This document shows, one piece after another, positions 8,949 through 55,350 of a stretch of DNA of 56,087 nucleotides. A program made the position numbers and the translations under genes. The stretch is from a virus (taxonomy: Duplodnaviria > Caudoviricetes), in the IMG/VR virus record IMGVR_UViG_3300036859_001061, positions 1 to 56,087 of that record. One strand, written 5' to 3'. Below the pieces are notes generated by a model, which ran no database searches, was not told the DNA's origin, and was given only the letters and a program-made list of their open reading frames with translations. How positions within the stretch are numbered: position 1 is the first letter of the stretch; each line of letters starts with the position of its first letter.

Positions 8949-9027
8949 CAGGTCCGGCCCTCCAGCCGGGAGGGAGTGTCTTTTTCCGTGCATAAAATGC
9001 GCAGAAACCGATACCCCCCGAGTCTGC

Positions 9028-11631: not shown

Positions 11632-12500
11632 CCGCGCCTCAACGTGATGGGGGTGTAATCTTCAAGCTCGCGCTGGTCGACGACCTCGTCGCGGTTCGTG
11701 TCGAGCGGGATGCCGCCGCCTTCCTTGAGCAACTGGAAAAGATCCAGGGCCTCCTTGCGGTAGCGGTCCGCCTTCTCCTTCCATTCCTCCGGGCGGCCGG
11801 CCCCGCGCTCGAGCCCGTTCAGGACGTAGTAGAGCGCCAGGAGGGTCGCGACCCGCTTCAGCCCGTCCGGCGCGCGGATCGGAAGGATCTGCGACGCGAG
11901 CGTCGAGCCGCTCGTGAGCGCCGCGTCGAGCGACAGCTCCACCCAGAAGTACTCGTCGGCCGTCGGCCCGAGGCGCACGCGCTGCCACGCCGACGGGATC
12001 GTCCAGGTGATCCGGCCGCTCGAGGCAAACGCGGTCGTGCCGTCGGTGGCCGCGAGCGTCGTCCAGCCCGTGCCCCCGCGATACTTCGCGGTCAACGTGC
12101 GACTCTGGGCGTTCAGCGCATCCTTCAGCTTCACCCAGATCCCGTCGAACTGGTAGTCGGCGCCGACGTAGAGCCGGTTCGCGCTGCTGGCGAAGATCGC
12201 CGTCAGGTTGACGTCGTCCTCCTCGTCGTCGACTGCGGCGCTCGTGATGTCGGCGTACGCGCCGCTGACGTAAGACAAGACGTACGCGGGGCTGTGCCGA
12301 TCGAGGATGCGATCGGCGGCGCCGCGGACCTTGGGAAACGCGCATTCGACGAGGATCTTGAGCTCGCGCTTCGCCTCGGCGCGTGCGGTCGGCCAGGTCG
12401 TCGCGCCCCACGGCGCCGGCGACGTGTTCGCGCGAGCCTGCGGCTCGATCGCCGCCAAGTCCGCGTCTGTCACGAGCGTCAGATTGGCCCAGCCACTCAT
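11628..12500 (-). CDS. Putative head-tail adaptor with inserted beta domain
   Basis: Helical N- and C-termini (KADRYRKEA) like connector proteins; position. Confidence 0.5.
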   Translation of the reverse strand: MSGWANLTLVTDADLAAIEPQARANTSPAPWGATTWPTARAEAKRELKILVECAFPKVRGAADRILDRHSPAYVLSYVSGAYADITSAAVDDEEDDVNLTAIFASSANRLYVGADYQFDGIWVKLKDALNAQSRTLTAKYRGGTGWTTLAATDGTTAFASSGRITWTIPSAWQRVRLGPTADEYFWVELSLDAALTSGSTLASQILPIRAPDGLKRVATLLALYYVLNGLERGAGRPEEWKEKADRYRKEALDLFQLLKEGGGIPLDTNRDEVVDQRELEDYTPITLRRG

Positions 12501-12504
12501 CGGG

Positions 12505-12816
12505 TTACCGCCTCACCAGGACCGTCACGGCCAGGCCGTTCGGGAAAAACACATCGAGGCTGCTCGCGTCGCGCGCCTTGAAGCGCAGCTCGTAGGGCGA
12601 CAGATCCGCGTCGAGGTCCACCGCGTCCGGGTTCCACTCGACCTGGCCGACTGCGGCCGACGTCACCGTGACATCGCCGCTCGCGTCGACCGCGGTGCCG
12701 TCCCGGTCGTAGAGCTGCGCGGTGACCGTCAAGCCGGTCAGGACCGCGGCGACCCCGTCGGCCTGCAACGTGAGGGGCACGGGCCCCGTCCAGCCCTCGA
12801 CGAGCTCGAGCGTCAT
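12505..12816 (-). CDS. Small beta-sandwich virion protein (BppU N-terminal-like)
   Basis: GQVEWNP..DL..YELRFK..VFFPN pattern. Confidence 0.5.
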   Translation of the reverse strand: MTLELVEGWTGPVPLTLQADGVAAVLTGLTVTAQLYDRDGTAVDASGDVTVTSAAVGQVEWNPDAVDLDADLSPYELRFKARDASSLDVFFPNGLAVTVLVRR

Positions 12817-19164: not shown

Positions 19165-19985
19165 CGGGCATCCTCCCAGTACGGCCGGAATGGTTTGCGT
19201 GCCACGAGCACGCCTTCGATGTGGCTGCGGCCCTCGCGCTGCCGCGTCTGCGTATCGGTGTCGGCGACGAGGCGCCAGCGCAGGAGCTGCAGGTCACACG
19301 GCGGTCGGTAGTCCGGAATCGCCGTCTGCTCCGCGGGGATCCGATACGAGTCCTGATTCAGATACAGGAAGCAGAATTCGCCGATCGCGCGGCTGTGGGT
19401 CGGGTCGCCCCAGCACCACTGGCTCGTGTAGTAGGGCGAGAGAAACTGCAGCCGCCCGCCCGACTTCAACACGCGGTAGACCTCGCCCCAGAACTGGAAC
19501 CACCCGGCGAGCTCCCCCTGGCGGCCGATGTGCTCGAGCACGTGGCTCGCGATCATCAGGTCGACGCTGTCGTCCGGGAGCGCGATCGCGTCCGCGCCGA
19601 GCGTGGCGGTGAGGTGCGCGCCGGCGTGCGCCATGCCGTCCAAGTTCACGAGGCGAATCGGCGGCCGCACCTCATCGCCCGCGGCGGTGAAGCACGTGAT
19701 CGGCGGCAGCTGCTCGAGGCGCTGCTTGCGGCCGCATCCGAGGTGCAGGACGACGAACTCGGGCAGGTCGGTGTCGCGGGCCTCGTCGTAACGCTGCCCT
19801 GGCAGATCCGGCGCCAGGTCGGCGAGCGCGGCCTCCCGCGCGTCGCGCTCGAGCAGCGGCCGGCACGCGGGCGGGATCAGGGGGCCCTGCGGGAATGACG
19901 GCCGCACCTTGTCGGACTCCTGCTTTTCTGACTCGTAGCCATGCAGGGCTAGCGCCGCGTCAACGGTGGCGTTCTTCTCATTCAC
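19161..19985 (-). CDS. Class I SAM-dependent methyltransferase
   Basis: VLHLGCG motif I, SVDLMIASHVLEH, YRVLKSGG, WGDPTH. Confidence 0.85.
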   Translation of the reverse strand: MNEKNATVDAALALHGYESEKQESDKVRPSFPQGPLIPPACRPLLERDAREAALADLAPDLPGQRYDEARDTDLPEFVVLHLGCGRKQRLEQLPPITCFTAAGDEVRPPIRLVNLDGMAHAGAHLTATLGADAIALPDDSVDLMIASHVLEHIGRQGELAGWFQFWGEVYRVLKSGGRLQFLSPYYTSQWCWGDPTHSRAIGEFCFLYLNQDSYRIPAEQTAIPDYRPPCDLQLLRWRLVADTDTQTRQREGRSHIEGVLVARKPFRPYWEDAR

Positions 19986-28739: not shown

Positions 28740-28973
28740 TCAGTGCGCGCGGCGTTTCAGGGCCTGGTCGAGCAGCTGCCGGGCGAGTTTGCCGGGTGTG
28801 ACGCCGCGATGTTGCGCTTCCTGGATCAGCCGATCGTGCAGCTCGGCGTTCATCCGGATCGAGAGTTCGGACGGGTCGACGAGCTCCGGTGGGCGGCCGC
28901 GGCGGGGCTTGCCGGACGCGGGCTCACGACTCGGCCCCTTATGCACCTGGTGTGGAGGCTTGGGGTCCATCAT
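28740..28973 (-). CDS. Ribbon-helix-helix DNA-binding protein
   Basis: RRGRPP then LSIRMNAELHDRLIQEAQHRGVTPGKLARQLL. Confidence 0.7.
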   Translation of the reverse strand: MMDPKPPHQVHKGPSREPASGKPRRGRPPELVDPSELSIRMNAELHDRLIQEAQHRGVTPGKLARQLLDQALKRRAH

Positions 28974-30628
28974 CGGCGCCCCCCTCGGAGCTCCGGCGGC
29001 AACACGAACGCCGGATCCTGCAGCCGCTTGATCGCCTCGACGGCGTCGGGCCCGTGCTTGGCGACGAGCTGCTCGAGCGCGAGATACTCGTCGGCTTTCC
29101 GCTCGCGCGTCTGCTTGCGCGCTTCCGCCGCGGCGGCCTCCGGATCGAGCACGGGCGTCGGGCCATCGGTCGCGCGTATCGTCGCGACGACTTCCCCCTT
29201 ACCCTTCGCGAGCTTGTTGAAGGCGCCCGCCGCGGCGTCGATCTGGTCCATGAACTTGGCGTCCTTTTGGTAGGCGTGCGCCTCCCGCAAGAACCCTTCG
29301 TTCCAGCGCCCCCGCACGAGCTTCACGTTGCCAGCTTCGGCCTGCGCGGAGAGCGGCCCGGCACGCTCGACTTTCTCGCCCGTGACCTTGTCTGCGCGAA
29401 TGGTGTAGCCGGCCAGGTTGCTGATGGTGTTCTCGGCGCTTTCCTTGCCGCCGCTGCCAGGCTCTTGCTCGACCCACACGTTGACCCCGACGCCGTCGAA
29501 CTCGGCGGTCTGCCGGATGACGCGCTCGCGGTTGTGCGCGGACCACTGCCCGGTGATGACGTCTTCGAGGTAGAAGAGGCCGTCGACCTCGGCGATGAGC
29601 ACGCCGGACGTGCGCTTCCCTCCACCCTCGGTGCCGGCCTTGTCCCAGTAGCGCGTGCGCCGGGCGCGCTTGGGCGAGGCGGCGACGATCGAGAACCACG
29701 CGCGGTTGAACACCTTGCCGGCGGTCGCCTTCACGTTCCAGTTGCCCCCGAGCAGCCGCTCGCGCTCGACGTAGGGCAGGGCCAGCAGGTTCGCCCGATA
29801 GCTGGGGTCTTTCTTCTGGAGGATCTTGTTGTCGGCGAGCGTGCCCGGGATGAACGTGAGCGACTTCGGCTGCAGGTCCGGGATGCTGGCGAAGCGGCGG
29901 TGCAACTGCTCGGCGCTGTCGGCCCAATGGAGCTCCTCGTTGAGCCGGACGAACCAGCGTATCTTGCCCGCGCGCGCCGGAATCGGCAGGCCGGTCTCCT
30001 GGTCAATCCACCAGGCAATCAGGCGATTGAGCCAGCCGCCGGTCGGGTCGTCGTCGGGGACCGGGTTGCACGTGGCGAGGATATAGGGCTTCACCCCGCA
30101 GACTGAGCGGTTGCGGGAGAGCATGTACCAGAACTGAATCTCCTCGAACGACTCGAGCTGGTCGAACCCGATACACGCGATCTGCGACCCGTCCCAGCTG
30201 AACCGGTCCTTCGCGTGCTGCATGTGCGCGAGCTTCACGGACATGCCCTGAGGAAACTCCCAGCGCAGATCGGTGAGGTTCGAGTCGGCGCCGAAGAGCG
30301 GGTAGATCTTCTCGCTCTCGTCCCAGATGCCGCCCTCGGATTTGAGCTGGGTCGTCTCGCGGCGGAAGAGGACTGCGCCGAAGCCTGGATTGTCCTTGTG
30401 CTTCAGCGGGTTGATCAGGAGACCGAAGGTCTTCCCCACGCCGGCGGCGCCGCCCGCGATGGTGATGTCGGCGCGGCTGTTGACGAACTGCTCCTGCGGG
30501 CCAGGCTGTGGGGTGATGCCGACGTCCTCGACGTCGAGCGGCGGCGGGTCGGGTTGGAAGGCCTCGAGCAGGCGATCGCACGCCTGGTCCCACGCGGTCG
30601 GCTGGCGGAGGGCTACACTGAGGCTCAC
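28970..30628 (-). CDS. terL: Terminase large subunit
   Basis: PQPGPQ, Walker A GGAAGVGKT, IGFDQL, ATCNP, nuclease RYWDKA, EQEPGSGGK, DQIDA. Confidence 0.95.
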   Translation of the reverse strand: MSLSVALRQPTAWDQACDRLLEAFQPDPPPLDVEDVGITPQPGPQEQFVNSRADITIAGGAAGVGKTFGLLINPLKHKDNPGFGAVLFRRETTQLKSEGGIWDESEKIYPLFGADSNLTDLRWEFPQGMSVKLAHMQHAKDRFSWDGSQIACIGFDQLESFEEIQFWYMLSRNRSVCGVKPYILATCNPVPDDDPTGGWLNRLIAWWIDQETGLPIPARAGKIRWFVRLNEELHWADSAEQLHRRFASIPDLQPKSLTFIPGTLADNKILQKKDPSYRANLLALPYVERERLLGGNWNVKATAGKVFNRAWFSIVAASPKRARRTRYWDKAGTEGGGKRTSGVLIAEVDGLFYLEDVITGQWSAHNRERVIRQTAEFDGVGVNVWVEQEPGSGGKESAENTISNLAGYTIRADKVTGEKVERAGPLSAQAEAGNVKLVRGRWNEGFLREAHAYQKDAKFMDQIDAAAGAFNKLAKGKGEVVATIRATDGPTPVLDPEAAAAEARKQTRERKADEYLALEQLVAKHGPDAVEAIKRLQDPAFVLPPELRGGRR

Positions 30629-31421: not shown

Positions 31422-31711
31422 GCGTTGATCCCGATGACGCGATTGGCGCTGGGAATGGGCGGCGACTTCGATAGCCGCATCCGCTCGGCGTGCGCCCTGA
31501 AGTCCGCGTCGGGCTTCGTCCACCAGGAGTCACCGCGTTGCGCGGGCGCGGCTAATTGCCGCAGGGCAGGATTGTAGGGGCGGCCGGCCTGGCGCCGGCT
31601 GAAGCCTTCCTCGGCCTCGGTCAGCGGCTCGGGACGATCGACGACGAAGCGGCCGTGTGTGGCTTCGAGGTCGTCGAGCAGCTCGAGATCGCCGGCGGGG
31701 CCCACGCGCAT
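31418..31711 (-). CDS. Hypothetical protein
   Basis: 97-aa coupled ORF. Confidence 0.45.
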   Translation of the reverse strand: MRVGPAGDLELLDDLEATHGRFVVDRPEPLTEAEEGFSRRQAGRPYNPALRQLAAPAQRGDSWWTKPDADFRAHAERMRLSKSPPIPSANRVIGINA

Positions 31712-31712
31712 G

Positions 31713-32234
31713 TCATCGGCCTCCGCCTCGGGCTCGCGCGTCGTGGTCGAGGCGACGTCGGGCGTCGGGCAGAGACTCGCCTCGGCGGGGCCGTGCGTCC
31801 TCCTCCGAGTCGGCGGCCGGCGGCTGCGCCGCCGCGCGCCCTGAGCCCTTCGTCACCGGCAGGCTGTAGCGTCGGCTATTGGTGACCCCCGTCGCCTGCA
31901 CGCGCCCCGCGCGCACCAGCCGTCCGATCGTGTAGCGCAGCTGCTTCTTCGTGATGCCGCAGGCATCGGCCAGAGACCCAGCGCTCAGAGGGATGGCGTT
32001 CGCGGCGAGCTCACGGCAAATGCGATAGTTGAGGTTGTGCCCGACCACGTGGTCGGCGGGAACGCGCTCGGTTGCCGGCATCATCGCCGACGGCTCGCCG
32101 AGCGGTCCCTCTCCTTGGGTGAGCAGGCGGAGCAGTCCGCATTTCGTGTCGTGCGCGCGCTGCATTTCTGTCTGCAGCGCGTCGAGATGCGCATCGAGCT
32201 CGGCCACCGCGGCGCGGATGACGTGCGTGTCCAT
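31713..32234 (-). CDS. Winged-helix DNA-binding protein; contains partial protospacer
   Basis: LSAGSLADACGITKKQLRYTIGRLVRAGRVQATG..RRYSL. Confidence 0.65.
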   Translation of the reverse strand: MDTHVIRAAVAELDAHLDALQTEMQRAHDTKCGLLRLLTQGEGPLGEPSAMMPATERVPADHVVGHNLNYRICRELAANAIPLSAGSLADACGITKKQLRYTIGRLVRAGRVQATGVTNSRRYSLPVTKGSGRAAAQPPAADSEEDARPRRGESLPDARRRLDHDARARGGGR

Positions 32235-32430
32235 TTTGTTGGTCTCGGGAACGGGACTGAGTGTGGAAGTGTGCCGGTGACCTGTAAAGGCTGAGATCTG
32301 TCCATCGGCTCGAACGGCTCGATCGGCTACGTGTGTCTCTTCCTCCGTGCGGTCTCCCGCCCGTGGCGAGATGAGCCTTTCCTTGGCGTTTTTGCGGATC
32401 CGCGTTTCAAGAGGGCGACGACGAGGTCCA

Positions 32431-32664
32431 TCAGTTGGTCCCTGTCCGCAAGGTCGGTATCCGGCTCCACTTGATCCGCTTTAGGAAATCGAGGAAGTCC
32501 TCCTCATGGACCCGGTACGAGGCGCGCTTCCCCGAGCCCGCGACGTTCTCCGCCTTGAGCCGCCCGTCCCGAATCTCCACCCAGACGTAATCGGTGCTCA
32601 CCCCCATGATGTCGGCGCACTCACGCGTCGTCAGCGGCCGACGCGGCGGCGGTGTGTCGCTCAC
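32431..32664 (-). CDS. Excisionase-like HTH protein
   Basis: LTTRECADIMGVSTDYVWVEIRDGRLKA..YRV. Confidence 0.75.
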   Translation of the reverse strand: MSDTPPPRRPLTTRECADIMGVSTDYVWVEIRDGRLKAENVAGSGKRASYRVHEEDFLDFLKRIKWSRIPTLRTGTN

Positions 32665-32888
32665 CCGCGCTCTCCCGCCTCGGCCGCCGCCGAGGCCTGC
32701 GCCGTCCGCACCTCGCGCGCCGCGCGCCGCACCCGCGACCGGACCCGGAGGCGCGCGCCGGCGAGCGCCGCGCACTCCAGCGCCCGCCCGCTGTAGTGGG
32801 CGAGGAGCCGACGCTGGGTCTCGCGCTCGGCGCGCAGCACCGGGGTGAAGTCGATCGTCGGGATGTCGATCATGGGGTGGCCTCGCAT
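32661..32888 (-). CDS. Hypothetical protein
   Basis: Coupled small ORF. Confidence 0.4.
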   Translation of the reverse strand: MRGHPMIDIPTIDFTPVLRAERETQRRLLAHYSGRALECAALAGARLRVRSRVRRAAREVRTAQASAAAEAGERG

Positions 32889-32889
32889 C

Positions 32890-33099
32890 TCAGTTCGGAA
32901 TCACAATCGAGGACGCGTGAGCCAGGAGATGGCGCGCCATCTCGCGGGCCTCGGCGTCGCTCAGCACGATCCAGTCGACGGGCCGCTGGAAGCGGAGCAC
33001 GACGTGGCCGTCGCGGCGGCCGACGGCGAACGCCATGCCGCCGTCGACTTTGCGGGTCGGGGGTTTCAACAGCCAGGCGTCTTTTGGGTCGGTGGGCAT
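32890..33099 (-). CDS. Hypothetical protein
   Basis: AAAGGAG RBS; 69 aa; first gene after the array. Confidence 0.6.
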   Translation of the reverse strand: MPTDPKDAWLLKPPTRKVDGGMAFAVGRRDGHVVLRFQRPVDWIVLSDAEAREMARHLLAHASSIVIPN

Positions 33100-33143
33100 A
33101 CTCAGTCTCCCTTTCTGTCTTCGTCAGCCGGCCCAGATGACAG

Positions 33144-33611
33144 CCCGCAGTGACCGAATCGGCGATCAGGCACTTCGAGGCTGGCAAGCGCTCGGTTGCC
33201 GGCGTCATCGCCGGCCCCGCAGTGATCACGCGTCGAATTGATCACTTCGGGGTCATGGTCGTGTCGCTTGCAATCCACATCGTGTGCCCGCAGTGATCTC
33301 GCGTCGAATTGATCACTTCGGGGCGCGGTAGTAGACGACCCCTTTCGCAACCTTCGTCACCCCGCAGTGATCACGCGTCGAATTGATCACTTCGGGGTCA
33401 TCGCGTAGGACACTTCCGTGTCGAACTGCTGCCCGCAGTGATCACGCGTCGAATTGATCACTTCGGGGCGACGTCGCGGCCCCCCTGCAAACCGCCGCCT
33501 ACGACCCGCAGTGATCACGCGTCGAATTGATCACTTCGGGTTCTTCTCCGCGGAGGACGCGCATTGGAAAAGCTGCCCGCAGTGATCACGCGTCGAATTG
33601 ATCACTTCGGG
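33144..33611 (-). CRISPR. CRISPR array: six 36-bp repeats, one degenerate trailer repeat, six spacers of 35-38 bp
   Basis: Plus-strand repeat CCCGCAGTGATCACGCGTCGAATTGATCACTTCGGG at 33216, 33287 (1 mismatch), 33361, 33432, 33505, 33576; degenerate copy 33144-33180; unique spacers; minus orientation inferred from degenerate end and upstream gene. Confidence 0.95.
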
Positions 33612-33729
33612 GGCGGTGCCCACAAGTGGGCGGATCCCCGACACTTACCCCGCGTCCCGCGAGCGCCTCCGGGACGTACGGTCCCGGCGCCCACCCGCGC
33701 TTGAGCCTGGCGGTGGCTCACAACTCGCA

Positions 33730-34983
33730 TCATGCTGATACCTCTCGACTTCCCTCCACCGCGAGCGATCCCGGCGGATCTGGCGGGATCTGACCGCTCG
33801 CGTACACCCACGCCAACCCGTGATTTTCGCAGGTCGTCTGCAGCCGCATCCGGAGCGCCTGCCAGGGGAACGGCGCACAGAACGTGTCCGTGCTGTCGTC
33901 GTACGTGACGGCCTCCACGCGCTCGCGCTGCGCGAGACGCACGACGTCCGCCGCGATCTGCGCGAGCCAGGTCCTGAGCTGGTCACGGCTGCGATCGGCC
34001 ATGCGCGCGAGCTTGACCCGCATCCCGGCCGCCTCCGAGGCGCGGAAGCGCCGCGAGACGCCCAGGTCCGCCGCCAGTCGCTCGCGGCGGACCGTGTAGC
34101 CACGGATGGCGCGACGGACCTGATCGCCAGAGATCGTCCCCACGATCCCGCGACCAGCGACCCGCAACACCAGCAGATCCGAGGCGCCAGTCTCCACCAC
34201 CAATCGGCAGCCGGGCGTGACGGACGCGGCCGTCTCGCGAGGGAACCACCCCACGAGCTTCAGCATCGGCTTGACGTCCCGATCCCCGCTCCGATGGTCG
34301 CCCGGCCGTCGCGTGACCCGCAGCAGCGCGCCCGCCCCGATCGCCCAGGACGACGTCTGGAGATGCCGCGCACGGGCCCGCTGGCCGTGGCCCACATAGA
34401 CCCGCAGCCGCCACCAGCGATCCCCCAGCCGCACCCGCACCACCGTGATCCCGTCGGCCGTCGTCGGCTCCAGCGCGAGGCCTTGATCATGGAGCGGCGC
34501 CGGCACCGGATACCGATACGTCGCCAGACTGCGCGCCCGCGTCCAGATCAGCTCGTACCGCTGCGCGCGATAGGTCTGCTCGACCTGCCGGATCAGCGAG
34601 GTCACATTGATCGGCGCCAGCGCGGGAAACAGGGCGCGGATCTCTGGGTAGAGATACACCTTCGGCATCGGTCCCAGCTTCCCATCCGTGGGGCCACGCC
34701 GCACGTCGCGCGCGTAGAGCTCCGTCGCGATCCAGTTGGCACACCGCGTCGTCTCCGCCCACGCGTCACGCAGCGCCGCGCCGAACTCCGGCCACGTCGC
34801 ATCCAGCGGGCGGGTGATCGCGAGCGTGACGGCGCGGCGTACATACTGCCGATCGAGACAATCACCGCACGTCGGATCAGGCGTGCGCTTCCACCCGATC
34901 GGGAGCCGCGTCTCGGCCTTCACCGCCTGGGTCCGTCCGCATCCACACAAGACCGTGCGTGCCAGGTCCTCGGCGTTACCCAC
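33730..34983 (-). CDS. Compact TnpB/Cas12-like CRISPR-associated protein, RuvC apparently inactive (about 417 aa)
   Basis: Ends 118 bp from the array; C-half follows TnpB order: RuvC-I-like RLVVETG, basic bridge helix, AADVVRLAQRERVEAVTYDD (RuvC-II-like), FPWQALRMRLQTTCENHGL; no RuvC-III or zinc finger after it; N-terminal CxC..CxxC; GTG start overlaps upstream stop. Confidence 0.7.
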   Translation of the reverse strand: MGNAEDLARTVLCGCGRTQAVKAETRLPIGWKRTPDPTCGDCLDRQYVRRAVTLAITRPLDATWPEFGAALRDAWAETTRCANWIATELYARDVRRGPTDGKLGPMPKVYLYPEIRALFPALAPINVTSLIRQVEQTYRAQRYELIWTRARSLATYRYPVPAPLHDQGLALEPTTADGITVVRVRLGDRWWRLRVYVGHGQRARARHLQTSSWAIGAGALLRVTRRPGDHRSGDRDVKPMLKLVGWFPRETAASVTPGCRLVVETGASDLLVLRVAGRGIVGTISGDQVRRAIRGYTVRRERLAADLGVSRRFRASEAAGMRVKLARMADRSRDQLRTWLAQIAADVVRLAQRERVEAVTYDDSTDTFCAPFPWQALRMRLQTTCENHGLAWVYASGQIPPDPPGSLAVEGSREVSA

Positions 34984-35188
34984 GGCCCCTCGCTTCCCAG
35001 GCCTTGTAGACGCGCTCGTACTCCGGACCTGGCGCCTGCCCGTCGAGCGCATAGACCCGGATGAACGTCCAGAGCGCGATCCGGTGCGGAATGTGCCAGG
35101 CGATGAACATCGGAAACCCCTCATCGCGGAACCACTGCCACCAGGCGCGGGGGCCCCACCCGCGCGTCCATAGCCTCCACATGGTCAC
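34976..35188 (-). CDS. Small Trp-rich hypothetical protein
   Basis: 70 aa, coupled to both neighbours. Confidence 0.55.
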   Translation of the reverse strand: MTMWRLWTRGWGPRAWWQWFRDEGFPMFIAWHIPHRIALWTFIRVYALDGQAPGPEYERVYKAWEARGRG

Positions 35189-35484
35189 TCCCCCTTTTTT
35201 AAAGACTCGCCGCTCGGTCTGGTCAACACCCCCGCCGCGCCGCGCTTGAAGTCCTCAGCCGCCGGGCAGCTTTTCCAATGCGCGTCCTCCGCGGAGAAGA
35301 ATGCGATAACCCGGTTCGTCTCGGGGTCCAGCGCCGACTTCCGCGGCACGGCACCGGCGTTCATCGGCATCTTCTTCCCGCGCCGGGTCTCGTACCAGTC
35401 GATCGCCGCCCCGCACCCCCGGCAGCGGCCGCCGACCGAGCGCGAGTCCTCGTAGAGTCGAATGAGCGTCCCGTCCCAACTCAC
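35185..35484 (-). CDS. Small zinc-binding phage protein; contains perfect protospacer
   Basis: CRGCGAAIDW..GKKMPMN..HWKSCP. Confidence 0.7.
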   Translation of the reverse strand: MSWDGTLIRLYEDSRSVGGRCRGCGAAIDWYETRRGKKMPMNAGAVPRKSALDPETNRVIAFFSAEDAHWKSCPAAEDFKRGAAGVLTRPSGESLKKGE

Positions 35485-35720
35485 GATTGCCCTCCTGGTG
35501 TCTCGTCGCGCCGCAGGTACTGGTAGACCGTCGCCGGCGCCGCGAGGAGCCCCAGCTTGCCGCCGAGCATTCGCCCGATCGCGCGTTTGCCGAGCAGGGC
35601 CTGCGAGACGAGCGCCGCGCTGCAGCCCACTTGCCGCGCGAAGGCCTCCGCGGACCCGGCGGCGTCGATCGCCCGCACGAGCAGCTCGCGGGCGTCGGCC
35701 TCCGTGAGCCAGGTGGTCAT
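35481..35720 (-). CDS. Cro-like HTH protein
   Basis: AGSAEAFARQVGCSAALVSQALLGKR. Confidence 0.7.
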   Translation of the reverse strand: MTTWLTEADARELLVRAIDAAGSAEAFARQVGCSAALVSQALLGKRAIGRMLGGKLGLLAAPATVYQYLRRDETPGGQS

Positions 35721-37312
35721 CGCTTCTTCCCGGCCTTCGCCTTCGCCGCGGGCTTCGACTCCGCGGCGGCCGGCGCCGGCGGCGCGTGCGTCGCGAGGAT
35801 CGCGGCCAGGCCGATGTCGAGCCCGAATCGCTTCAGCCGGCCAGGCACCTCACGCCGGCCCCAGTACTCGTTGTCGACGCCGCGCAGCGCCTGGCCCAGC
35901 GCCAGGACGCGGAGGGTTTCGTCGGCGTTCTTCGGCGGCCGGTTCAGTAGCCGCTGACTGTCCGCCTTCGCGTCGCGGGCCTCGGCGAGCGCCAGCTTGA
36001 TCAGCGTCGGCACCGGGGCGGCCTTCACCTGCGCGAGGATGGCGGCCTCGATCTCGGGGACCGCCTTCTTCCACTGGCGGCGCTCCTCGGCGTCCTGCTT
36101 CTCCTTCGCTTTCAGCTCCGCCTCCGTACGCGCGACCGCATTCGCCTCGTTGCGCGCGGCCTGCTTCCCCTTGCCGGACGCGCGGAGATTGGCGCTGTGC
36201 TCCTTCTGCTTGACGACCGCGGCGAAGTGGACGCGACAGCGATCGCGCGCGACGCAAACCCGCAGCGTGTCGCCCTGGCCGGGGCCCGCGACGACGACGC
36301 CGAGCACGGAGTGTTCGCAGGTCTTCGACTTCGCCTGCCCGTCGGCGCGCTCCCACGACTGCGACCCGTAGGTGCGTTCCTCGGCGCGCGCGTCGTCGGC
36401 GACGCGGTATTCGTGCGTGATCGCGATGACCTTCCGGCCGCGGCCCGGCTGCCCCGCGGCGGCGTCGACCTGGGCGGCCGTGGCCTCGAAGACGAGCGGC
36501 TGCGCCGTCGCCGCGTGCGCGACGTCGAACCGGACATGTCGCTGAATCCAGCCGTCGAACTCCCGGATCGAGACCGGTTTGACGTCGTCGTACTTGCCCG
36601 CTCTCTTTTCCTCGTCGGCGGTGAGAAAGTTGCGGCTGTGATCGGATGCCCACAGTCCGCCGACCGCGCCGACGCGCCCCACGCTCGAGTCTGGATCGAT
36701 CGCCCGCTCCTGGTCTGCCGGCTTCAGCCGCGACAGCAAGATCGCGTGCCCCACCGTGAACCGGTTCGCCTCCAGCAGCCGCTTCGCCTCCGGAATCAGG
36801 TCGTTCAGCTTCAGGCGGTCCCACACGTAGCCGACTGACATCCCGATCCGGGTCGCGATGGTCTCGGCGCTGTGCTTCGTCGGATTGCTGTCGATCAGGC
36901 GCCGGTAGCCGACGGCCTCTTCGAGCGGCGTCAGATCCTTGCGGTGGATGTTCTCCTCGAGCTGCGTCTCGAGGACCTGGGCGTCGGTGTAGGCACGGAC
37001 GATCGCCGGCACCTGGACCAGGCCCGCGAGCTTCGACGCGCGGTACCGGCATTCGCCGGCGACGATCTCGAAGAGCTTCGGGTGCTGCGCGGCCTTCTCG
37101 GGGTGCCGCCCGATCGCGCGGAGGCCGTCGAGCGGCCGCACGACGATCGGCTGGATGAGCCCCTTCTCCCGGATGCTGCCGGCGAGCTCGGCGAGGTACG
37201 CGTCGTCGAAGTGTGTGCGCGGGTTCGTCTTCGACGGGACGATGACCGCGGTCGGAAGGTGCTGGAAGGGCGCCTCGGTCTCCGCCGGCGGCGCCGCGGC
37301 TGCTGTCGTCAT
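35717..37312 (-). CDS. ParB/Spo0J-family protein
   Basis: NPRTHFD, LAGSIREKGLIQPIVVRP, IVAGECRYRA, ENIHRKDLTPLEEA, HTH. Confidence 0.9.
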   Translation of the reverse strand: MTTAAAAPPAETEAPFQHLPTAVIVPSKTNPRTHFDDAYLAELAGSIREKGLIQPIVVRPLDGLRAIGRHPEKAAQHPKLFEIVAGECRYRASKLAGLVQVPAIVRAYTDAQVLETQLEENIHRKDLTPLEEAVGYRRLIDSNPTKHSAETIATRIGMSVGYVWDRLKLNDLIPEAKRLLEANRFTVGHAILLSRLKPADQERAIDPDSSVGRVGAVGGLWASDHSRNFLTADEEKRAGKYDDVKPVSIREFDGWIQRHVRFDVAHAATAQPLVFEATAAQVDAAAGQPGRGRKVIAITHEYRVADDARAEERTYGSQSWERADGQAKSKTCEHSVLGVVVAGPGQGDTLRVCVARDRCRVHFAAVVKQKEHSANLRASGKGKQAARNEANAVARTEAELKAKEKQDAEERRQWKKAVPEIEAAILAQVKAAPVPTLIKLALAEARDAKADSQRLLNRPPKNADETLRVLALGQALRGVDNEYWGRREVPGRLKRFGLDIGLAAILATHAPPAPAAAESKPAAKAKAGKKR

Positions 37313-37355
37313 GCTGCTGTCGCTTTCTGCCGGCGTCCGCCGGCGTCACACGGGT

Positions 37356-38546
37356 CTAGAAGTCGGCCTTCAGCGCCAGGTCGGTGGGGACCCCTTCGGC
37401 GTCGACCGTGGGGGTCTGCCCTTTCTTCCCCTTGGCCTTGCCCTTCGCCGGGTAGTGGTGGTCGGGGCCGGCCTTCTTCGGCTTGCCCTTGCAATCGGTC
37501 CCGACGAGCGTGCCGATCTCGTAGTAGTTCGCGTCGTCCCCGCCCGCGATGAGCACGACGTCGCACTGCGTGCACGCCTGGTCCGCGCTATCACGGCCAG
37601 GGCCGGCGACGTGTCCCCTGCCGAGGACCGATGGCCGCTCGGGGACCGCTACCTCGACGACGTCGATCCCGGACGCCTGCTCATCCCGGTCCGTGACGAC
37701 CGCTTCTGCCCAGGTCATCACGGCGTTGCGCTCGTCCGGAGTCCACGCGCGGACGGTGTCGAGCGTGACGCTGATCTGCACGTCGTCGAGCGCGTCGACC
37801 GTTGGCTGCAACTGCTCGAGCTCGAGGGCCTCGAACACCTCGTCGAGATGCGCGGTGCTATCGCGCGGTGTCGTCGGCAGACCCTCGCGGCACACGATGC
37901 ACGTCTCGCCGGGATGCTGCTCCTCCCACACACAGAGCACGAGGTTGGTCCCCTGCGGATGCTCGGCGTCGGCCGCGGTGCGCCGGGCGATCTCGTGCAG
38001 GCGATCTTGCTCGCGCTCCTGGAGCGTTTCGATCAACACGCTCAGCTCGGCGTGCCCCTCGTCGAGCGCACCCTTCGCCTTCTTCCGGCGCTCGTCGGCG
38101 TCGTTGAACTTCGCCTCCAGAATCGCGACGGTCTTCTGCTTCTCGAAGATCTCGTGCAGCGCGCCCTCGTAATTGAACGGCGGCGCGGGGAACGGGAGCC
38201 GCGGCGTCTCGGCGACCTGCGCGGCGACCTGGGTGATGGCGTCCTCGGCCGACTGCCGTTCGTCCGCGATCACGAGCTCGCCGTGCCCATTCGGACAGAG
38301 CGGCCGCCCGTACTCCCCGATGCCGAGCGCCTGGTCGCTATCGACGAGCGTGAAGCCCGCGCGCGAGGGCAGCATCCGGAAGTGCACGCCGAAGTCGCAC
38401 GTCTGGCAGCGGCCCATGTGCATGACGGGATCCGGCGAGGGGGTCGAAATCACCGCCTCGCTATCAGGCGTATCAGACCCATTAGCCCTATCAGCCCTAT
38501 CAGGGGTCTCACGGTCGACCACGGTGTCCGCCGCATCAGTCGTCAT
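37356..38546 (-). CDS. Hypothetical protein with Cys pairs and coiled coil
   Basis: Long ORF, ATGA overlap start. Confidence 0.6.
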   Translation of the reverse strand: MTTDAADTVVDRETPDRADRANGSDTPDSEAVISTPSPDPVMHMGRCQTCDFGVHFRMLPSRAGFTLVDSDQALGIGEYGRPLCPNGHGELVIADERQSAEDAITQVAAQVAETPRLPFPAPPFNYEGALHEIFEKQKTVAILEAKFNDADERRKKAKGALDEGHAELSVLIETLQEREQDRLHEIARRTAADAEHPQGTNLVLCVWEEQHPGETCIVCREGLPTTPRDSTAHLDEVFEALELEQLQPTVDALDDVQISVTLDTVRAWTPDERNAVMTWAEAVVTDRDEQASGIDVVEVAVPERPSVLGRGHVAGPGRDSADQACTQCDVVLIAGGDDANYYEIGTLVGTDCKGKPKKAGPDHHYPAKGKAKGKKGQTPTVDAEGVPTDLALKADF

Positions 38547-51481: not shown

Positions 51482-52681
51482 ATGCCGCGGAAGGGCAAGC
51501 GCCGGCGGATCGCGAAGAGCGTCTATGCGGACGGGTCCGGCTGGTCGGCCGTCGCGCGTGCCGGCGACCTCGTGCGGGAACAGCGCTATGAGCCAGGCAC
51601 GTCCATGAAAACGATCCGGAGCTGGCAGCGCGATACCGAGCGCGAGCTCCGGAAGCTCCTCGGCACGCCGACCGGCGAGCGGCGCCTGACGCTGACCCAG
51701 GATATCGAGACCTACCTCACGGAAAAGACGATGGCGTCGATCGCCGATCGCGAGCGGGACCTGCGCGCGTGGATTCCCTGGTTCGGGCATCGCCGGCGCC
51801 ACACGCTGCGGACGCGCGAGCTGGACGCGCAGCTCCGGCGCTGGCGCGTGCTGGACAGGCTCTCGGCCTCGTCGGTGAATCATCGCCGCGATGCACTGTC
51901 GGATCTCTTCACCGTCCTCGATGGCCCGGAGGCCACGAACCCGGTGAAGGGCTGCATCTGGTGTGCCCGGGCGAAGCCGATCCCGCAAGCGATCGACCGG
52001 GCGCGGATCCAGCGCGTCCTCGAGGCGATGGATCCGGACCGAAAGACACGCTGGCGTCTCAGCCTTATGCACTGGACGGGGATGCGGCCGTCGCAGATGG
52101 GACGGCTCGCGGGGCCCGAGGACTTCCACATTGGCACCCGCGCGTTCGAACTCGAGATCCATGGCGCGCCGCGGCGCGTGCCGGCGGTCCTGGTGCCGTC
52201 GGGCAAGGGCGGCGACCCGGTCATGTTCCCGCTCACCGCGGAGGGCGAAGCGGTCGCGCGTGCGTTTCTCCGGACCGATGCCTTTTGGCGGCCGCCCGCG
52301 CGGCAGCCCGGCGCGCCACCAAAGACGCCGCGCGTGACCTGGTCGTGCCCGAGCGCCTACAAACGCATCGTGGCGGCGGCGACGAAGATCGGCGAGCGGC
52401 CGTTCACGGTCTACACGATCAAGCACTCCTTCGCCACGGCGCTCCGCCGCACCGGCACGGACCTGGCCGACATCCAGGACATGCTCGGGCACGCCGACAT
52501 CGCGAGCACGAGGATTTACGCGCCGGCGGTCAACGCGAAGCACGTCGAGGCGCTCGACCGGTTGCGGCGCGACGACGCCCGCAGGTATGATCACCCAGGG
52601 GCCACGAAACCAACGTCGTCTCCCCAGGCCGCGCCGGTTTCCGTGGCACCCGAGCGTGGCACCAAAGATGATGCCGCGTAA
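51482..52681 (+). CDS. int: Tyrosine recombinase (phage integrase)
   Basis: TGMRPSQ, GKGG, YTIKHSFAT, IQDMLGHAD, TRIYA. Confidence 0.92.
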   Translation: MPRKGKRRRIAKSVYADGSGWSAVARAGDLVREQRYEPGTSMKTIRSWQRDTERELRKLLGTPTGERRLTLTQDIETYLTEKTMASIADRERDLRAWIPWFGHRRRHTLRTRELDAQLRRWRVLDRLSASSVNHRRDALSDLFTVLDGPEATNPVKGCIWCARAKPIPQAIDRARIQRVLEAMDPDRKTRWRLSLMHWTGMRPSQMGRLAGPEDFHIGTRAFELEIHGAPRRVPAVLVPSGKGGDPVMFPLTAEGEAVARAFLRTDAFWRPPARQPGAPPKTPRVTWSCPSAYKRIVAAATKIGERPFTVYTIKHSFATALRRTGTDLADIQDMLGHADIASTRIYAPAVNAKHVEALDRLRRDDARRYDHPGATKPTSSPQAAPVSVAPERGTKDDAA

Positions 52682-52700
52682 GTCGTTGAGCCGGTTATGT

Positions 52701-52777
52701 GCGCCCGTAGCTCAGCTGGATAGAGCGCCGGGCTTCGAACCCGTAGGTCGGGGGTTCAAATCCCTCCGGGCGCACCA
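52701..52777 (+). tRNA. tRNA-Arg (anticodon TCG)
   Basis: Acceptor GCGCCCG/CGGGCGC, D loop AGCTGGATA, anticodon loop CTTCGAA, T loop TTCAAAT, encoded CCA. Confidence 0.93.
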
Positions 52778-53865: not shown

Positions 53866-55350
53866 ATGCTCAGGATGGACCAGGTACATGTCATTCGCCA
53901 CCAGGTGTTGGTGGAGGGCCGGTCACAGCGGCAGGTGGCCAAAGCCTTCGGGATGTCGCGGCTGACGGTGCGGAAGTACGTCGGCGAGGCGGCGCCGCGG
54001 CCGAAGGAAACGGGGCCGCGGGCACGGCCGGTCTGGGACAAGGTCGCGGGACGGGTCGAGGCGGTGCTCACCGCGTCGGCGCAGTGGACGGGCGGCAAGC
54101 AGCGGCTGACGGCCACACGGTTGCACGCGCTGCTGGTGGCCGAGGGGCACACCGTCGGCGTGACCGTCGTCAAAGACGCGCTCGCGGAATGGAAGCGGCA
54201 GCGGCGCGAGGTCTTCGTGCCGCTCACGTATCGCCCGGGCGATCTGGCGGAGGTCGATTTCTTCGAGGTGCTCGTCGACGTCGACGGCGTCCGTCGGAAG
54301 GCGTGGCTCTTCCTGATGCGCCTGATGTACTCCGGTCGCGACTTCGCGTGGATCTACGCGCGGCAGGATCAGATCAGTTTTCTCGACGGCCACGTCCGCG
54401 CCTTTGCGCACTTCGACGGCGTGCCGGCGCGTGTCGCCTACGACAATCTGCGTGCCGCGGTCGTGCGGATCCTGGTCGGCGGCGCGCGGACGTTGACGCC
54501 GCGATTCGCGGCGCTCGCATCGCACTACCTGGTCGAAGCGTGCTTCTGTCGGCCCGGCGAGGGCCATGATAAGGGCGGCGTCGAGGCCCGCGGCAAAGCG
54601 ATCCGCCAGCAAGCACTCGTGCCCATTCCGAGCGGGCCGACGCTCGCGGGGATCAATGCGGCACTGCTGGCGCAGATGGATGCGCGGCTCGACACCACGC
54701 GCGATGCCGCCGGGCAGACCATCGCGGCGCGCTTCGCCGAGGAGCAGCAGCAGTTTCGACTCGCGCCGACACCGTTTGCGCCGGAGTCGACGACGCTGGC
54801 CACCGTGACACCGCGCGCGTTAGTGCGGCTCGAGGGCGCGGTGTACTCGGTGTGGACGCGCTGGGCCGGCCTCGACCTGGTGGTTCGCATCGGGGCCAGC
54901 ACGGTGACGATCGTCGGCCGCGACGGCACGCACGTGCAGCACCCGCGGAAGCGCTTCGGCGAGCGCTCGATTGACTATCGGCATTACCTGACGGAGCTCG
55001 CGCGCAAGCCGCAGGCGGTGCGGCAGGTGCTCCCCGATCTCGTGCGCGATCTCGGCGCCCCGTTTCCGGCGATCTGGGATCAGCTCCACATCGCGTATGG
55101 GCCGCGCGAAGCCGCGCGGCTCTTCGCCAAAGTCCTCGGCCAGCTCGAAACTCAGGGCGCCACGGTCCTCGTGCCCGCGCTGATCGCGGCACTCGCGACA
55201 GGGACGCCACTGTTGCTCGCGCTCACGCCGGCGCGGCGCTCCCTCGATCGCCTCGCGCCGGACGCCGTGCCCGCGCCGCTCCGCGCGATCGACGTCGGCA
55301 GTGGCTGTGCTGCCGACTATGACGCGTGGCTCGGCGAGGTGGCGGGATGA
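53866..55350 (+). CDS. istA: IS21 transposase IstA
   Basis: N-terminal HTH, AEVDF, YDNL, KGGVE (DDE). Confidence 0.93.
   Translation: MLRMDQVHVIRHQVLVEGRSQRQVAKAFGMSRLTVRKYVGEAAPRPKETGPRARPVWDKVAGRVEAVLTASAQWTGGKQRLTATRLHALLVAEGHTVGVTVVKDALAEWKRQRREVFVPLTYRPGDLAEVDFFEVLVDVDGVRRKAWLFLMRLMYSGRDFAWIYARQDQISFLDGHVRAFAHFDGVPARVAYDNLRAAVVRILVGGARTLTPRFAALASHYLVEACFCRPGEGHDKGGVEARGKAIRQQALVPIPSGPTLAGINAALLAQMDARLDTTRDAAGQTIAARFAEEQQQFRLAPTPFAPESTTLATVTPRALVRLEGAVYSVWTRWAGLDLVVRIGASTVTIVGRDGTHVQHPRKRFGERSIDYRHYLTELARKPQAVRQVLPDLVRDLGAPFPAIWDQLHIAYGPREAARLFAKVLGQLETQGATVLVPALIAALATGTPLLLALTPARRSLDRLAPDAVPAPLRAIDVGSGCAADYDAWLGEVAG

Follow-up and report, generated by a model that had tools for sequence, protein, structure and literature searches.

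A perfect self-matching first spacer in a putatively nuclease-dead Cas12f-like CRISPR module of a soil provirus

A precedent for binding-only type V interference is Cas12m2, which silences mobile elements by DNA binding (PMC10442227). The dCas12f-sigmaE activators (PMC13472631; PDB 9n9c, 9n9m) combine, as far as the accessible text describes them, a dead, truncated Cas12f-like protein with a structured guide RNA, as does the locus presented here. The same source, again in its accessible part, outlines a CRISPR-associated nuclease-dead Cas12f cluster which likewise has a Cas12f fold and a C-terminal truncation removing part of RuvC, together with arrays nearby and a structured gRNA region upstream detected by covariance, the same as found here; some of its members lie beside RND efflux genes, comparable to the RND pump gene that we found ~76 nt upstream of the effector in 8 loci of relatives (PMC13472631). 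The dead-effector CRISPR module described below is related to these known nuclease-dead type V systems, and its first spacer perfectly matches the phage that carries it.

The window, meaning the whole stretch of DNA analysed, consists of 56,087 nucleotides of a Caudoviricetes record (IMGVR_UViG_3300036859_001061). The record is classed as a provirus and its integrase adjoins a tRNA-Arg gene, in agreement with the integrated prophage proposed in a preliminary description of this DNA. The CRISPR module is positioned between the replication/partition genes and the packaging genes, and the features are as follows (coordinates, strand, description).

28970-30628, minus: terminase large subunit; packaging/late genes follow the CRISPR module on the same strand
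32056-32091, minus: second, imperfect self-match (31/36) in the HTH_20 gene 31713-32234 (minus); guide sense-oriented; 5' flank ...GAGCC
33144-33611, minus: CRISPR array; six hairpin repeats of 36 nt, with a degenerate one at the terminal end, and six spacers (35-38 nt)
33180-33215, minus: oldest spacer, adjoining the degenerate repeat; imperfect self-match
33541-33575, minus: leader-/scaffold-proximal spacer, 35 nt, perfect self-match
33612-33729, minus: region of a structured, tracr-like scaffold RNA, joined to the first repeat on its upstream side; its UCGGGG segment is predicted to pair with the first repeat's 5' end
33730-34983, minus: 417-aa Cas12f-fold effector; N-terminal CxC..CxxC; RuvC motifs lost or truncated
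34976-35188, minus: 70-aa ORF between target gene and effector; start and stop overlap both neighbours
35185-35484, minus: target gene, 99-aa Zn-ribbon protein (C21xxC24 ... H69xxxC73) of the conserved small phage protein family phrog_5984; weak DUF6083
35267-35301, plus: self-target (protospacer); plus strand equals the crRNA guide; 5' flank ...GCCGCCGGG, with G at -1 and CGGG equal to the repeat 3' end
35481-35720, minus: 79-aa HTH protein; overlaps with ParB on its upstream side and with the target gene on its downstream side, as in an operon
35717-37312, minus: ParB-like protein (ParB_N, HTH_ParB) with which the run of overlapping genes starts upstream
51482-52777, plus: tyrosine integrase (51482-52681) and tRNA-Arg (52701-52777); lysogeny/attachment end

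The repeats start at 33216, 33287, 33361, 33432, 33505 and 33576; all but one are identical, the exception differing at a single nucleotide. A degenerate seventh repeat at 33144-33179 agrees in 21/36 positions and is in register, and because it lies at the low coordinates, the trailer is placed there and the leader beside the effector, which makes 33541-33575 the leader-proximal spacer, as the preliminary description had proposed. The array is on the effector's strand with its first repeat 118 nt past the effector stop codon, and the array-after-effector layout is also found in at least 16 distinct arrays of relatives. The intervening scaffold of 118 nt is conserved in 35 loci, and RNAalifold predicted 29 pairs from the 35-sequence alignment, 22 of them with compensatory changes; the predicted pairing of the anti-repeat with the repeat 5' end joins alignment columns 87-92 with 119-125. 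Since the scaffold is joined to the first repeat, the self-matching first spacer is the scaffold-proximal, single-guide-like one. A search of Rfam returned a single match, Bp1_684, whose 21.6 bits fall short of the gathering score of 44.

The effector matches the PADLOC Cas12f profile (E 1.7e-6, profile positions 4-304 of 399), and its AF2 model (pLDDT 87.6) retrieved 71 PDB chains at E<=0.001 in Foldseek, topped by AsCas12f, OsCas12f, SpCas12f1, dCas12f, Cas12k and TnpB. The best match was AsCas12f (8j12_A, E 2.1e-17), with dCas12f (9n9c_A) at E 1.5e-13; the effector family profile found SpCas12f1 in the PDB at E 1.5e-7 and did not find the dCas12f chains. The protein thus has the Cas12f/TnpB fold with its WED-REC-RuvC architecture, but lacks an intact RuvC D-E-D triad. 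In RuvC-I a conserved acidic residue is present in 0/29 aligned relatives, where T265 is invariant; the column of the motif I Asp holds E264 in the window effector and R, A, T, Q, S, I and others in the relatives. The motif II Glu position is Y361, and the chain ends ~50 aa after it, before the Zn finger and RuvC-III. The single acid E264, occurring in this one protein, cannot make a triad. Nearly all of the best 150 relatives from a search without length filter are ~380-450 aa long. The family comprises ~780 clusters at 50% identity. Judging from these residues, the effector, which would bind DNA, almost certainly does not cut it, which upholds an earlier claim, and a non-cutting effector would be the reason why a perfect self-match can persist in a provirus.

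The self-match itself is exact: 33541-33575 (plus) is the reverse complement of 35267-35301 (minus) in 35/35 positions, no third copy exists in the window at <=3 mismatches, and none of 100 dinucleotide shuffles contained two matches of the spacer. The identity reaches 4 nt (CGGG) into the repeat 3' end to give 39 contiguous nucleotides, and by composition the chance of a flank equal to the repeat end is ~0.013. The protospacer lies within ORF 35185-35484 (minus), codons FFSAEDAHWKS, and covers residues 62-73 of the target protein including the invariant H69. It is 284 nt from the effector start (at 34983), the target gene being the second upstream of the effector, and with a minus-strand array the crRNA equals the plus strand at the target and would pair with the coding strand and the mRNA. 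Match, distance (given as ~280 bp), gene and antisense geometry had all been described correctly. A model of the target protein (pLDDT 81.4) had no PDB match at E<=0.001. Among 96 loci of relatives the target gene has no homologue and hence no spacer co-varies with this site; the co-variation suggested in the preliminary description was found in another form, as shown below for two relatives whose first spacers each match their own phage. A Pfam scan of four upstream and three downstream neighbours of the module gave ParB and HTH domains only and no sigma factor gene. Neither terminator-like nor sigma-70-like sites (0 and 0) were found in a scan of 32800-37600. By eye, a TTGACC-N17-TTTAAA element that was not called by the scan can be seen between target and effector, at ~35226-35198 on the minus strand.

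The oldest spacer, 33180-33215, also has a counterpart in the window, which was absent from the preliminary description: a same-strand match of 31/36 at 32056-32091, with mismatches at guide positions 2, 12, 29, 31 and 34, where the best background score of any spacer is 26. A match of this kind would be expected if the spacer had been directed at a relative, or if it were a self-spacer that has since decayed. Spacers 1-4 have no exact sub-match longer than 11 nt in the window (background mean 11.2, maximum 14), and a natural target for them was not found in the window, the viral contigs, the IMG/VR terminase relatives or the Acidobacteriota genomes. A single-protein scan of the viral contig set found no relative of the effector, tblastn of the effector against 50,697 phage records gave no match, and neither the 35-nt target nor 24-nt parts taken from two other spacers had an exact match in the viral contig set (0 each). 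The IMG/VR relatives identified by terminase (80 loci kept of 344) are at most 60% identical, carry neither the effector nor the target gene, and show only chance-level spacer matches of 15-17 nt. Across 401 Acidobacteriota genomes the array gave chance-level matches only (best per-genome E 2.4e-4), and none holds an array with the same repeat.

Self-matches recur in relatives that carry the effector family. The phages L094 and L041, from a second lineage unrelated to that of the window, are 99.7% identical over 11.3 kb, have spacers 2-4 in common and differ essentially only in the first spacer. That of L094 (42 nt) equals L094:10192-10233, a stretch that spans RBS and ATG of the gene for the major head protein, and that of L041 (44 nt) equals L041:19333-19376, inside the head maturation protease gene; both protospacers are present in each of the two phages. 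These self-targets are in head genes ~8 kb downstream of the effector and their guides are sense-oriented. Antisense action of the crRNA at the RNA level, on the mRNA of the target gene, is possible at the window but was dropped as a general explanation because of this orientation. In L081, spacers 3 and 4 have perfect matches in other contigs of the same MAG, in HTH genes, one of them beside an integrase-like ORF; these matches are read as lying in further mobile elements of the host genome. In total, 4/16 distinct multi-spacer arrays perfectly match co-resident DNA, and in 3/3 phage cases the self-match is the first spacer (chance ~1/6 x 1/4 x 1/4 if position were random). All three phage self-targets have G at -1, whereas the two L081 targets have T or C there with T-rich flanks (ccttt, cttc), unlike the window's site, so that G at -1 is not general in the family.

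Not every relative shows such a match. No self-match was found in the complete relative phage genome L091/G403 (direct terminal repeats, 100% complete), in the partial records L092, L090 and L093, or among 85 non-window spacer segments of 15 loci; L041, L090, L093/L039, L094 and L095 were excluded from this 15-locus pass by consensus repeats of <30 nt, and the positives came from a whole-record search. Self-targeting is thus not a constant of the system. Some chromosomal relatives carry one repeat and a conserved guide of 13-15 nt, and these fixed guides have no match of >=12 nt inside their own loci. In three loci, 11/13 matches to them lie in an outer-membrane-factor gene ~6 kb upstream, but ~0.5 such matches per locus are expected by chance, which leaves a lead only; one fixed guide has one extra exact 15-mer in genome G001, a single data point. 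No sigma-like cluster is among the 12 largest conserved neighbour clusters of the relatives.

With a probability of about one half, we favour the reading that a binding-only CRISPR module takes spacers from co-resident phage DNA, tolerates them and represses phages of its own kind. In this view a soil bacterium's provirus carries a three-part type V module made of a RuvC-dead Cas12f-fold protein, a repeat-fused scaffold RNA and a short array. DNA of a like phage would have been the source of the first spacer, which entered the array at its leader end and has persisted there since the effector can do no more than bind. With this guide the effector would open an R-loop at 35267-35301, both in the resident phage and in any incoming copy, and work as a CRISPRi-type repressor; the outcome would be sequence-programmed immunity or silencing against phages of the same kind, with self-binding in the lysogen harmless or useful. 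We infer all three of binding at the site, repression of transcription and benefit to the phage or lysogen. An extra immunity layer against related phages, already raised in the preliminary description, is plausible. G at -1 would fit, by analogy, the minimal 5'-G TAM of dCas12f, as given in the accessible part of its description (PMC13472631). For DNase-dead Cas12a, the available excerpt names pairing with the non-template strand as the less effective orientation (PMC5460296), and by the same kind of analogy the non-template pairing of the crRNA would count against repression here. That near-identical phages differ in their first spacer agrees with rapid turnover at least as well as with a guide fixed for regulation.

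That the match could be a chimera of two strains, one with the spacer and the other with an intact target, was considered, since the contig is metagenome-derived and a 35-nt inverted repeat breaks de Bruijn unitigs, as at 35263-35292. Contigs of two soil metagenome runs (2 studies; one of the two runs may be the sample behind the window's own assembly) nevertheless cover all four spacer/target junctions, namely repeat-to-spacer (33511-33570), spacer-to-repeat (33550-33601), flank-to-protospacer (to 35292) and protospacer-to-flank (from 35263 or 35272). Both contexts occur at the depth of the neighbouring genome (~40 in one run, ~12-21 in the other) with no variant letters listed. The duplication is real and not an assembly artefact, a chimera being very improbable, although contigs drop rare variants, so that a minor allele may exist. 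Run X2 has no cover over 33161-33311, and no RNA dataset is listed among the public runs that contain this DNA. A reading that we regard as possible though rather doubtful is that of a tolerated by-product, in which a host adaptation module acting in trans samples abundant replicating phage DNA and near-neutral or mildly costly self-spacers enter at the leader end and are then lost or decay, without function. It would account for the leader-proximal position in all three phages and for the first spacers that differ between 99.7%-identical phages, which imply fast turnover; the older positions of the three self-matching phage arrays lack a perfect self-match, and the match of the oldest window spacer has decayed to 31/36, guide position 2 being among its mismatches. 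The targets are scattered over a Zn-ribbon gene, a protease gene and a capsid start in both orientations, and a complete relative is free of any self-match. Cas1 (PF01867) was found in none of the three phage records searched (G000, G403, G405), a point against the favoured reading, which does not account for how the spacers are acquired, while one Cas1 gene lies elsewhere in the host MAG G408. On the other hand, neutral self-spacers should also survive intact at older positions, and costly ones that are soon removed would have to be acquired at a very high rate for each of the three sampled alleles to contain one. It is moreover the first spacer that is physically joined to a conserved scaffold, the expected position of a functional guide, and spacer and target are both at full genome depth in the two soil runs.

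The preliminary description had favoured a roadblock, i.e. a dedicated negative feedback in which the guide blocks RNA polymerase upstream of the effector and limits the effector, the array and the downstream genes. The target does sit in an overlapping gene run (ParB, HTH, Zn-ribbon, 70-aa ORF, effector), after which scaffold and array come in the same orientation, the scan placed no terminator or sigma-70 promoter inside it, and guide-RNA self-repression is known for Cas9 tracr-L and cr-like mini-arrays from what the available text reports (10.1101/2023.03.03.530964). We nonetheless consider it unlikely, as the polymerase would run into the guide-distal end first, the pairing of the crRNA is with the non-template strand, the element seen by eye would escape the block, and the known autoregulatory guides in the same partial source are partial promoter matches rather than full matches to coding DNA (10.1101/2023.03.03.530964). 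The target gene is also unlinked to the effector in the 96 relative loci, and since the L094 and L041 targets lie ~8 kb downstream, effector feedback cannot be the general logic. Quite unlikely, too, is a silent spacer, where the site stays unbound because a TAM is missing or because the CGGG flank, equal to the repeat 3' end, marks it as array-like, and the match would be without effect. T-rich PAMs are the general rule among Cas12f nucleases, and the flanks of the L081 targets, unlike that of the window, are T-rich. The flank could indeed mark the site as array-like and not a valid target, yet the G at -1 is common to the other two phage self-targets and agrees with the TAM of dCas12f. Discrimination of flank against repeat is a trait of type III systems and is not known from type V.

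Perfect self-targeting spacers are usually taken as lethal accidents, whereas here array, target and a putatively dead effector coexist, all of them intact, at full depth in two soil samples, and another temperate phage likewise has self-matches in the first slot, though with different guides. Should the guides be active, these phages own a programmable repressor which is re-aimed at phage genes by the phages or their hosts. Lysogeny control, and immunity between related phages, would thereby gain a new layer, and there would be natural evidence of CRISPR adaptation feeding a purely regulatory effector. If they are inert, the case still shows nuclease loss lifting the penalty on self-derived spacers. 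We tentatively go one step further and suggest, as a speculative extension, that the dead-Cas12f CRISPRi module of temperate phages in soil Acidobacteriota-like hosts keeps sampling its own genome into the scaffold-proximal slot, creating a heritable, re-programmable RNA-guided lock on phage genes that silences resident and incoming copies, including repressor-insensitive mutants; it would be a self-directed CRISPR interference for lysogeny control, not destruction. Selection on the lysogen may favour such a self-lock, since a cell whose prophage is "grounded" escapes lysis. In practical terms, the family would offer, judging by its motifs, a 400-aa binding-only Cas12f scaffold with a natural single-guide architecture.

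Compared with the nearest known systems, the window family may be the same clade as the cluster in Extended Data Fig. 1 of PMC13472631, and the branch may already be named, for example as a V-U subtype, in PMC10691335. The published example of the cluster, as far as the available text goes, is chromosomal, from a Chitinophagaceae MAG, with a guide against an efflux promoter, whereas the window module is phage-borne and precedes the packaging genes, and its first spacer is a full-length perfect copy of its own coding DNA, unlike that example (PMC13472631). The dCas12f-sigmaE systems, in the same partial account, have an operonic sigmaE (rpoE) partner and a fixed guide, while the window has no sigma gene and a multi-spacer array. 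Cas12m (type V-M) is likewise a small type V effector with arrays that binds and silences mobile elements without cutting, by the accessible part of its description (PMC10442227). In that account Cas12m2 is larger (516-604 residues in the matched PDB chains) and keeps an HDD RuvC pocket, against 417 aa and a truncated RuvC here (PMC10442227). The fold match to Cas12m2 is also much weaker (8hhm_A, E 2.4e-6, against 2e-17 for Cas12f), and Cas12m uses crRNA only where the window family has a tracr-like scaffold. The window effector may work like Cas12m without being a member of type V-M.

TldR is similar in being a prophage-encoded nuclease-dead TnpB/Cas12 relative for RNA-guided repression, but it uses a single fixed omega-RNA guide against a host promoter (fliC, oppF/opp and csrA loci), where the window has an array with turnover whose target is the phage's own coding DNA (10.1101/2023.11.30.569447; 10.64898/2026.09.22.753285). 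The Cas9 tracr-L and cr-like mini-arrays are similar in that a guide at the locus edge sends the effector to its own locus without cleavage. Their match to cas promoters is partial (11 bp for tracr-L; ~11-16 nt) and the effector nuclease-active in the available text (10.1101/2023.03.03.530964), while here a predicted dead effector goes with a match over all 35 nt, within the coding sequence of a cargo-like phage gene. A further comparison is offered by mini-arrays borne by viruses. Medvedeva and colleagues reportedly described, in 2019, such arrays with spacers matching related viruses, leading to superinfection exclusion. The mini-arrays have no effector, borrow the host's active Cas machinery and avoid perfect self-matches, whereas the window phage has its own dead effector and a self-match. 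In nuclease-active systems, self-targeting spacers are lethal unless the system or the target is degraded. Self-spacers known from autoimmunity lie at the leader end and look like recent accidents, which is similar here, and the array, repeats, effector ORF and target of the window are all intact, presumably because nothing is cut.

The first spacer of the array and its target inside the window are reverse complements with 35/35 identity, and they lie among the following features.

28970-30628, minus strand: terminase large subunit (phrog_979, E 3.6e-136)
33144-33611, minus strand: CRISPR array
33541-33575, minus strand: first spacer
33612-33729, minus strand: scaffold RNA
33730-34983, minus strand: effector, 417 aa
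35185-35484, minus strand: target gene
35267-35301: protospacer
51482-52681, plus strand: tyrosine integrase (E 3e-11)
52701-52777, plus-strand module: tRNA-Arg, 3′ of the integrase

No third copy of the 35-nt sequence was found in the window with up to 3 mismatches allowed, and two matches were reached in 0/100 dinucleotide shuffles. With a repeat finder the match grows to 44 nt at 95% identity through an added CGGG, the same four bases that close the repeat at its 3′ end. The array holds six 36-nt repeats, five identical and one with a single change, and a degenerate seventh in register at 33144-33179 (21/36). This decayed repeat marks the trailer end, which places the leader on the effector side and makes the self-matching spacer leader-proximal. 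The exact self-match of the preliminary description stands. The oldest spacer, not listed there, matches 32056-32091 on the same strand at 31/36, against a best background score of 26 for spacers anywhere in the window. Within the protospacer, 35284-35293 is a perfect 10-bp palindrome, CTCCGCGGAG (12/14 counting the arms), which could be a protein-binding site, the probability of its arising by chance being not negligible.

The same description had named an assembly artefact as one outcome that would undo this match, and the contigs uphold the duplication. The region is present in two soil metagenome runs from two studies, whose contigs over 31500-36000 show no listed difference from the window at array or target, and contig pieces span repeat to spacer, spacer to repeat, left flank to target and target to right flank. 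Unitigs break at 35263-35292, as expected because the 35-nt sequence occurs twice. Depth in the two runs is 38.5 and 18-21 in the spacer context and about 40 and 10-13 in the target context, equal to the neighbouring genome in each; these values come from contigs, in which rare variants are lost, and the window may itself stem from one of the runs, so a minor allele may exist. A chimera of two strains is unlikely, given that both contexts stand at full neighbouring depth, with no listed differences, in both runs.

The window is a single 56,087-bp contig making up the whole assembly, classed as a provirus and 77% complete; between its start and about 48.5 kb nearly all genes are minus-strand. 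Ahead of the CRISPR module lie a CII-like regulator, a PD-(D/E)XK nuclease, an SMC-like ATPase, an IstB/DnaC-like protein and ParB; after it come the large terminase and then the structural genes. Successive overlaps of 4-8 nt join ParB to a 79-aa HTH protein, this to the target gene (99 aa), then a 70-aa ORF and finally the effector. Beyond the tRNA-Arg, an rve/Mu-type transposase gene (53866-55350) probably lies outside the provirus, in DNA of the host or of another mobile element. The target-gene product belongs to an ~80-aa phage protein family (51 database matches including the query's own entry; homologues 47-74% identical) with invariant C21, C24, H69 and C73, and the protospacer spans its conserved FF(A/S)(A/S)xD(A/S)HW stretch; its model has no structural look-alike among solved structures. 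The place of the gene just before the late genes is suggestive. An approximately 15-residue C-terminal extension of the protein, missing in 15 of the 16 aligned homologues, has in its coding DNA both the overlap with the next ORF and a promoter-like element, TTGACC-17 nt-TTTAAA, at about 35198-35226 on the minus strand. Spotted by eye (a scan tool made no call), the element stands downstream of the target at a distance of 41 nt, adjoining the 70-aa ORF's ribosome-binding site (GGGGGAG), and is a possible internal promoter for effector and array.

Pfam, NCBIfam and PHROG searches with the effector returned no family. It aligns with positions 4-304 of the 399 in PADLOC's Cas12f profile (E 1.7e-6), and its family profile with SpCas12f1 (E 1.5e-7) and OsCas12f (E 4.4e-6). 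A confident structure model built from 29 relatives (pLDDT 87.6) matches Cas12f first (8j12_A, E 2.1e-17), then dCas12f (9n9c_A, E 1.5e-13), Cas12k, TnpB and Cas12m. The motif I Asp column, adjoined by an invariant Thr265, is unconserved in the family, with Glu in the window protein and, among other residues, Arg, Ala, Thr, Gln, Ser or Ile in relatives; Tyr361 is aligned to the motif II Glu, and the family stops about 50 residues later, reaching neither the Zn finger nor motif III. The array starts 118 nt past the effector stop codon with the scaffold between, so close that no split C-terminal half is encoded there. Relatives number 780 clusters at E<=0.001 among 1.84 billion representatives searched with no length filter, and the best 150 of these are nearly all 380-450 aa long. 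From sequence and model we conclude that the effector, a lone Glu264 in the window protein noted, would be a DNA binder that does not cut, which bears out the earlier proposal.

A conserved ~120-nt stretch from the effector stop codon to the first repeat was found by motif search in 45 of 97 loci, the window included. RNAalifold on 35 distinct loci predicted 29 pairs, 22 with compensatory changes, including a helix between a scaffold segment (UCGGGG in the window) and the 5′ end of the first repeat, together with the inner hairpin of the repeat. This pairing fixes the transcribed strand, and with the scaffold fused to the first repeat, the first spacer is physically joined to the scaffold as in a natural single guide. 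In the same alignment the anti-repeat segment tracks the repeat 5′ end from locus to locus. Rfam gave no family for the scaffold, only a sub-threshold Bp1_684 match.

We collected 96 loci of effector relatives (79 metagenome, 10 genome and 7 viral), and all 10 genome matches are titled Acidobacteriota MAGs. A spacer co-varying with this very site, the check proposed in the preliminary description, was not recovered, none of the 96 loci containing homologues of the window's neighbouring genes, target gene included. Whole-record searches gave three further loci with perfect matches to co-resident DNA. In L094 (record G405) the 42-nt first spacer matches 10192-10233, a stretch that takes in both the ribosome-binding site and the start codon for the major head protein, and in L041 the 44-nt first spacer matches 19333-19376 within the head maturation protease gene. 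These temperate, integrase-bearing phages have 99.7% identity across 11.3 kb and the same spacers 2-4, the first spacer being essentially their only difference; both target sites are present in each genome, and effector and array lie directly upstream of terminase, portal and head genes, as in the window. Their first spacers (L094:1492-1533, L041:11276-11319) share an initial CGTGCA and are longer than the 36-nt spacers 2 and 3. In the third locus, L081 (MAG G408), spacers 3 and 4 (3066-3101 and 3138-3172) perfectly match HTH/Xre-like genes on two other contigs in 36-nt matches (L198:3001-3036 and L199:3001-3035). One of these targets adjoins an integrase-like ORF and a PD-(D/E)XK-like gene, and contig C11 of the MAG carries a second copy of the array, 91% identical. 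Altogether, 4 of 16 distinct multi-spacer arrays perfectly match co-resident DNA, through the first spacer in 3/3 phage cases; no self-match was found in L091/G403, a complete relative phage with terminal repeats, or in three partial records.

Of the relatives' arrays, that of L093 (= L039), at about 11290-12700, is unusual: the recurring unit is just the 3′ part of the repeat (GGTCACTTCGGG-like), found every 30-35 nt and separated by short guides, and the whole resembles an array of half repeats. L040 has two arrays (4429-5200 and 5443-5767), the second inverted and with one spacer common with L038, and L001 has arrays at 5480-5880 and 8872-9052, the second 3 kb off and sharing one spacer with the first. 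Spacers 1 and 3 of L035, 94% alike over 32 nt, look as if they sampled two variants of one target.

Chromosomal relatives have just one repeat with a conserved guide of 13-15 nt after it, and the guides fall into three groups (L006, L007, L009, L080, L083, L086; L020, L022, L033, L082, L087; L084, L088). In eight loci with this arrangement, a gene for an RND efflux pump precedes the effector by ~76 nt. PMC13472631 mentions Cas12f homologues that are dead and truncated, lie close to CRISPR arrays and have covarying gRNA regions, with a guide aimed at the promoter of an RND efflux gene; because of these eight loci, those homologues and the present family probably overlap. Candidate 11/13 guide targets occur in an outer-membrane-factor gene ~6 kb upstream (L006:3903, L083:4607, L086:2247; chance expectation ~0.5 such matches per locus), guide position 5 co-varying in two loci. 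The 15-nt guide of L082 has one more exact copy in its 8-Mb genome (G001:C1:2682491-2682505, locus L099); this copy lies antisense within a large ORF resembling an outer-membrane receptor, and its 5′ flank reads CATGTTG.

On the guide-identical strand, the window, L094 and L041 all have G immediately 5′ of the target, the base with which the repeat also ends. This fits the minimal 5′-G TAM given for dCas12f in PMC13472631. The flanks at both L081 targets are T-rich, which makes a 5′-G TAM tentative for the effector. The guide pairs with the non-template strand in the window and with the template strand in L094 and L041. For DNase-dead Cas12a within genes the template strand is the effective one, according to PMC5460296; by analogy, the window site would be in the weaker orientation for blocking elongation and the L094 and L041 head-gene sites in the stronger. 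A feedback roadblock on the effector, the array and downstream genes, as the preliminary description suggested, is the weakest reading, with the window guide unfavourably oriented, the by-eye promoter-like element between target and effector, and the L094 and L041 targets downstream of the effector. The interpretation in that description is supported in part, in that a self-spacer is kept alongside an effector predicted not to cut.

That the spacer is genuinely self-derived, and retained because the effector is predicted to be unable to cut, is well supported. Three observations speak for a module that would act by binding DNA from its own kind of phage: the first-slot position next to the scaffold, the recurrence in a second lineage with alternative guides and the L081 matches to other integrated elements. 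Such binding may give immunity to phages that are related or repressor-insensitive, may silence the resident prophage, or may do both. A by-product of adaptation, taken from the phage's own DNA and tolerated, would account equally well for a further set of observations: turnover of first spacers is fast, a complete relative lacks a self-match, target positions are scattered and the oldest spacer has decayed.

A full-text literature search, supplements and figures excluded, returned no phage-borne dead-Cas12f array whose first spacer perfectly matches its own phage. Inactivated Cas12f and V-U branches are listed in PMC10691335. Among the nearest known systems are Cas12m, with interference by binding only (PMC10442227), TldR, with prophage-borne RNA-guided repression (10.1101/2023.11.30.569447; 10.64898/2026.09.22.753285), and tracr-L and cr-like mini-arrays, with self-regulation through partial matches (10.1101/2023.03.03.530964).
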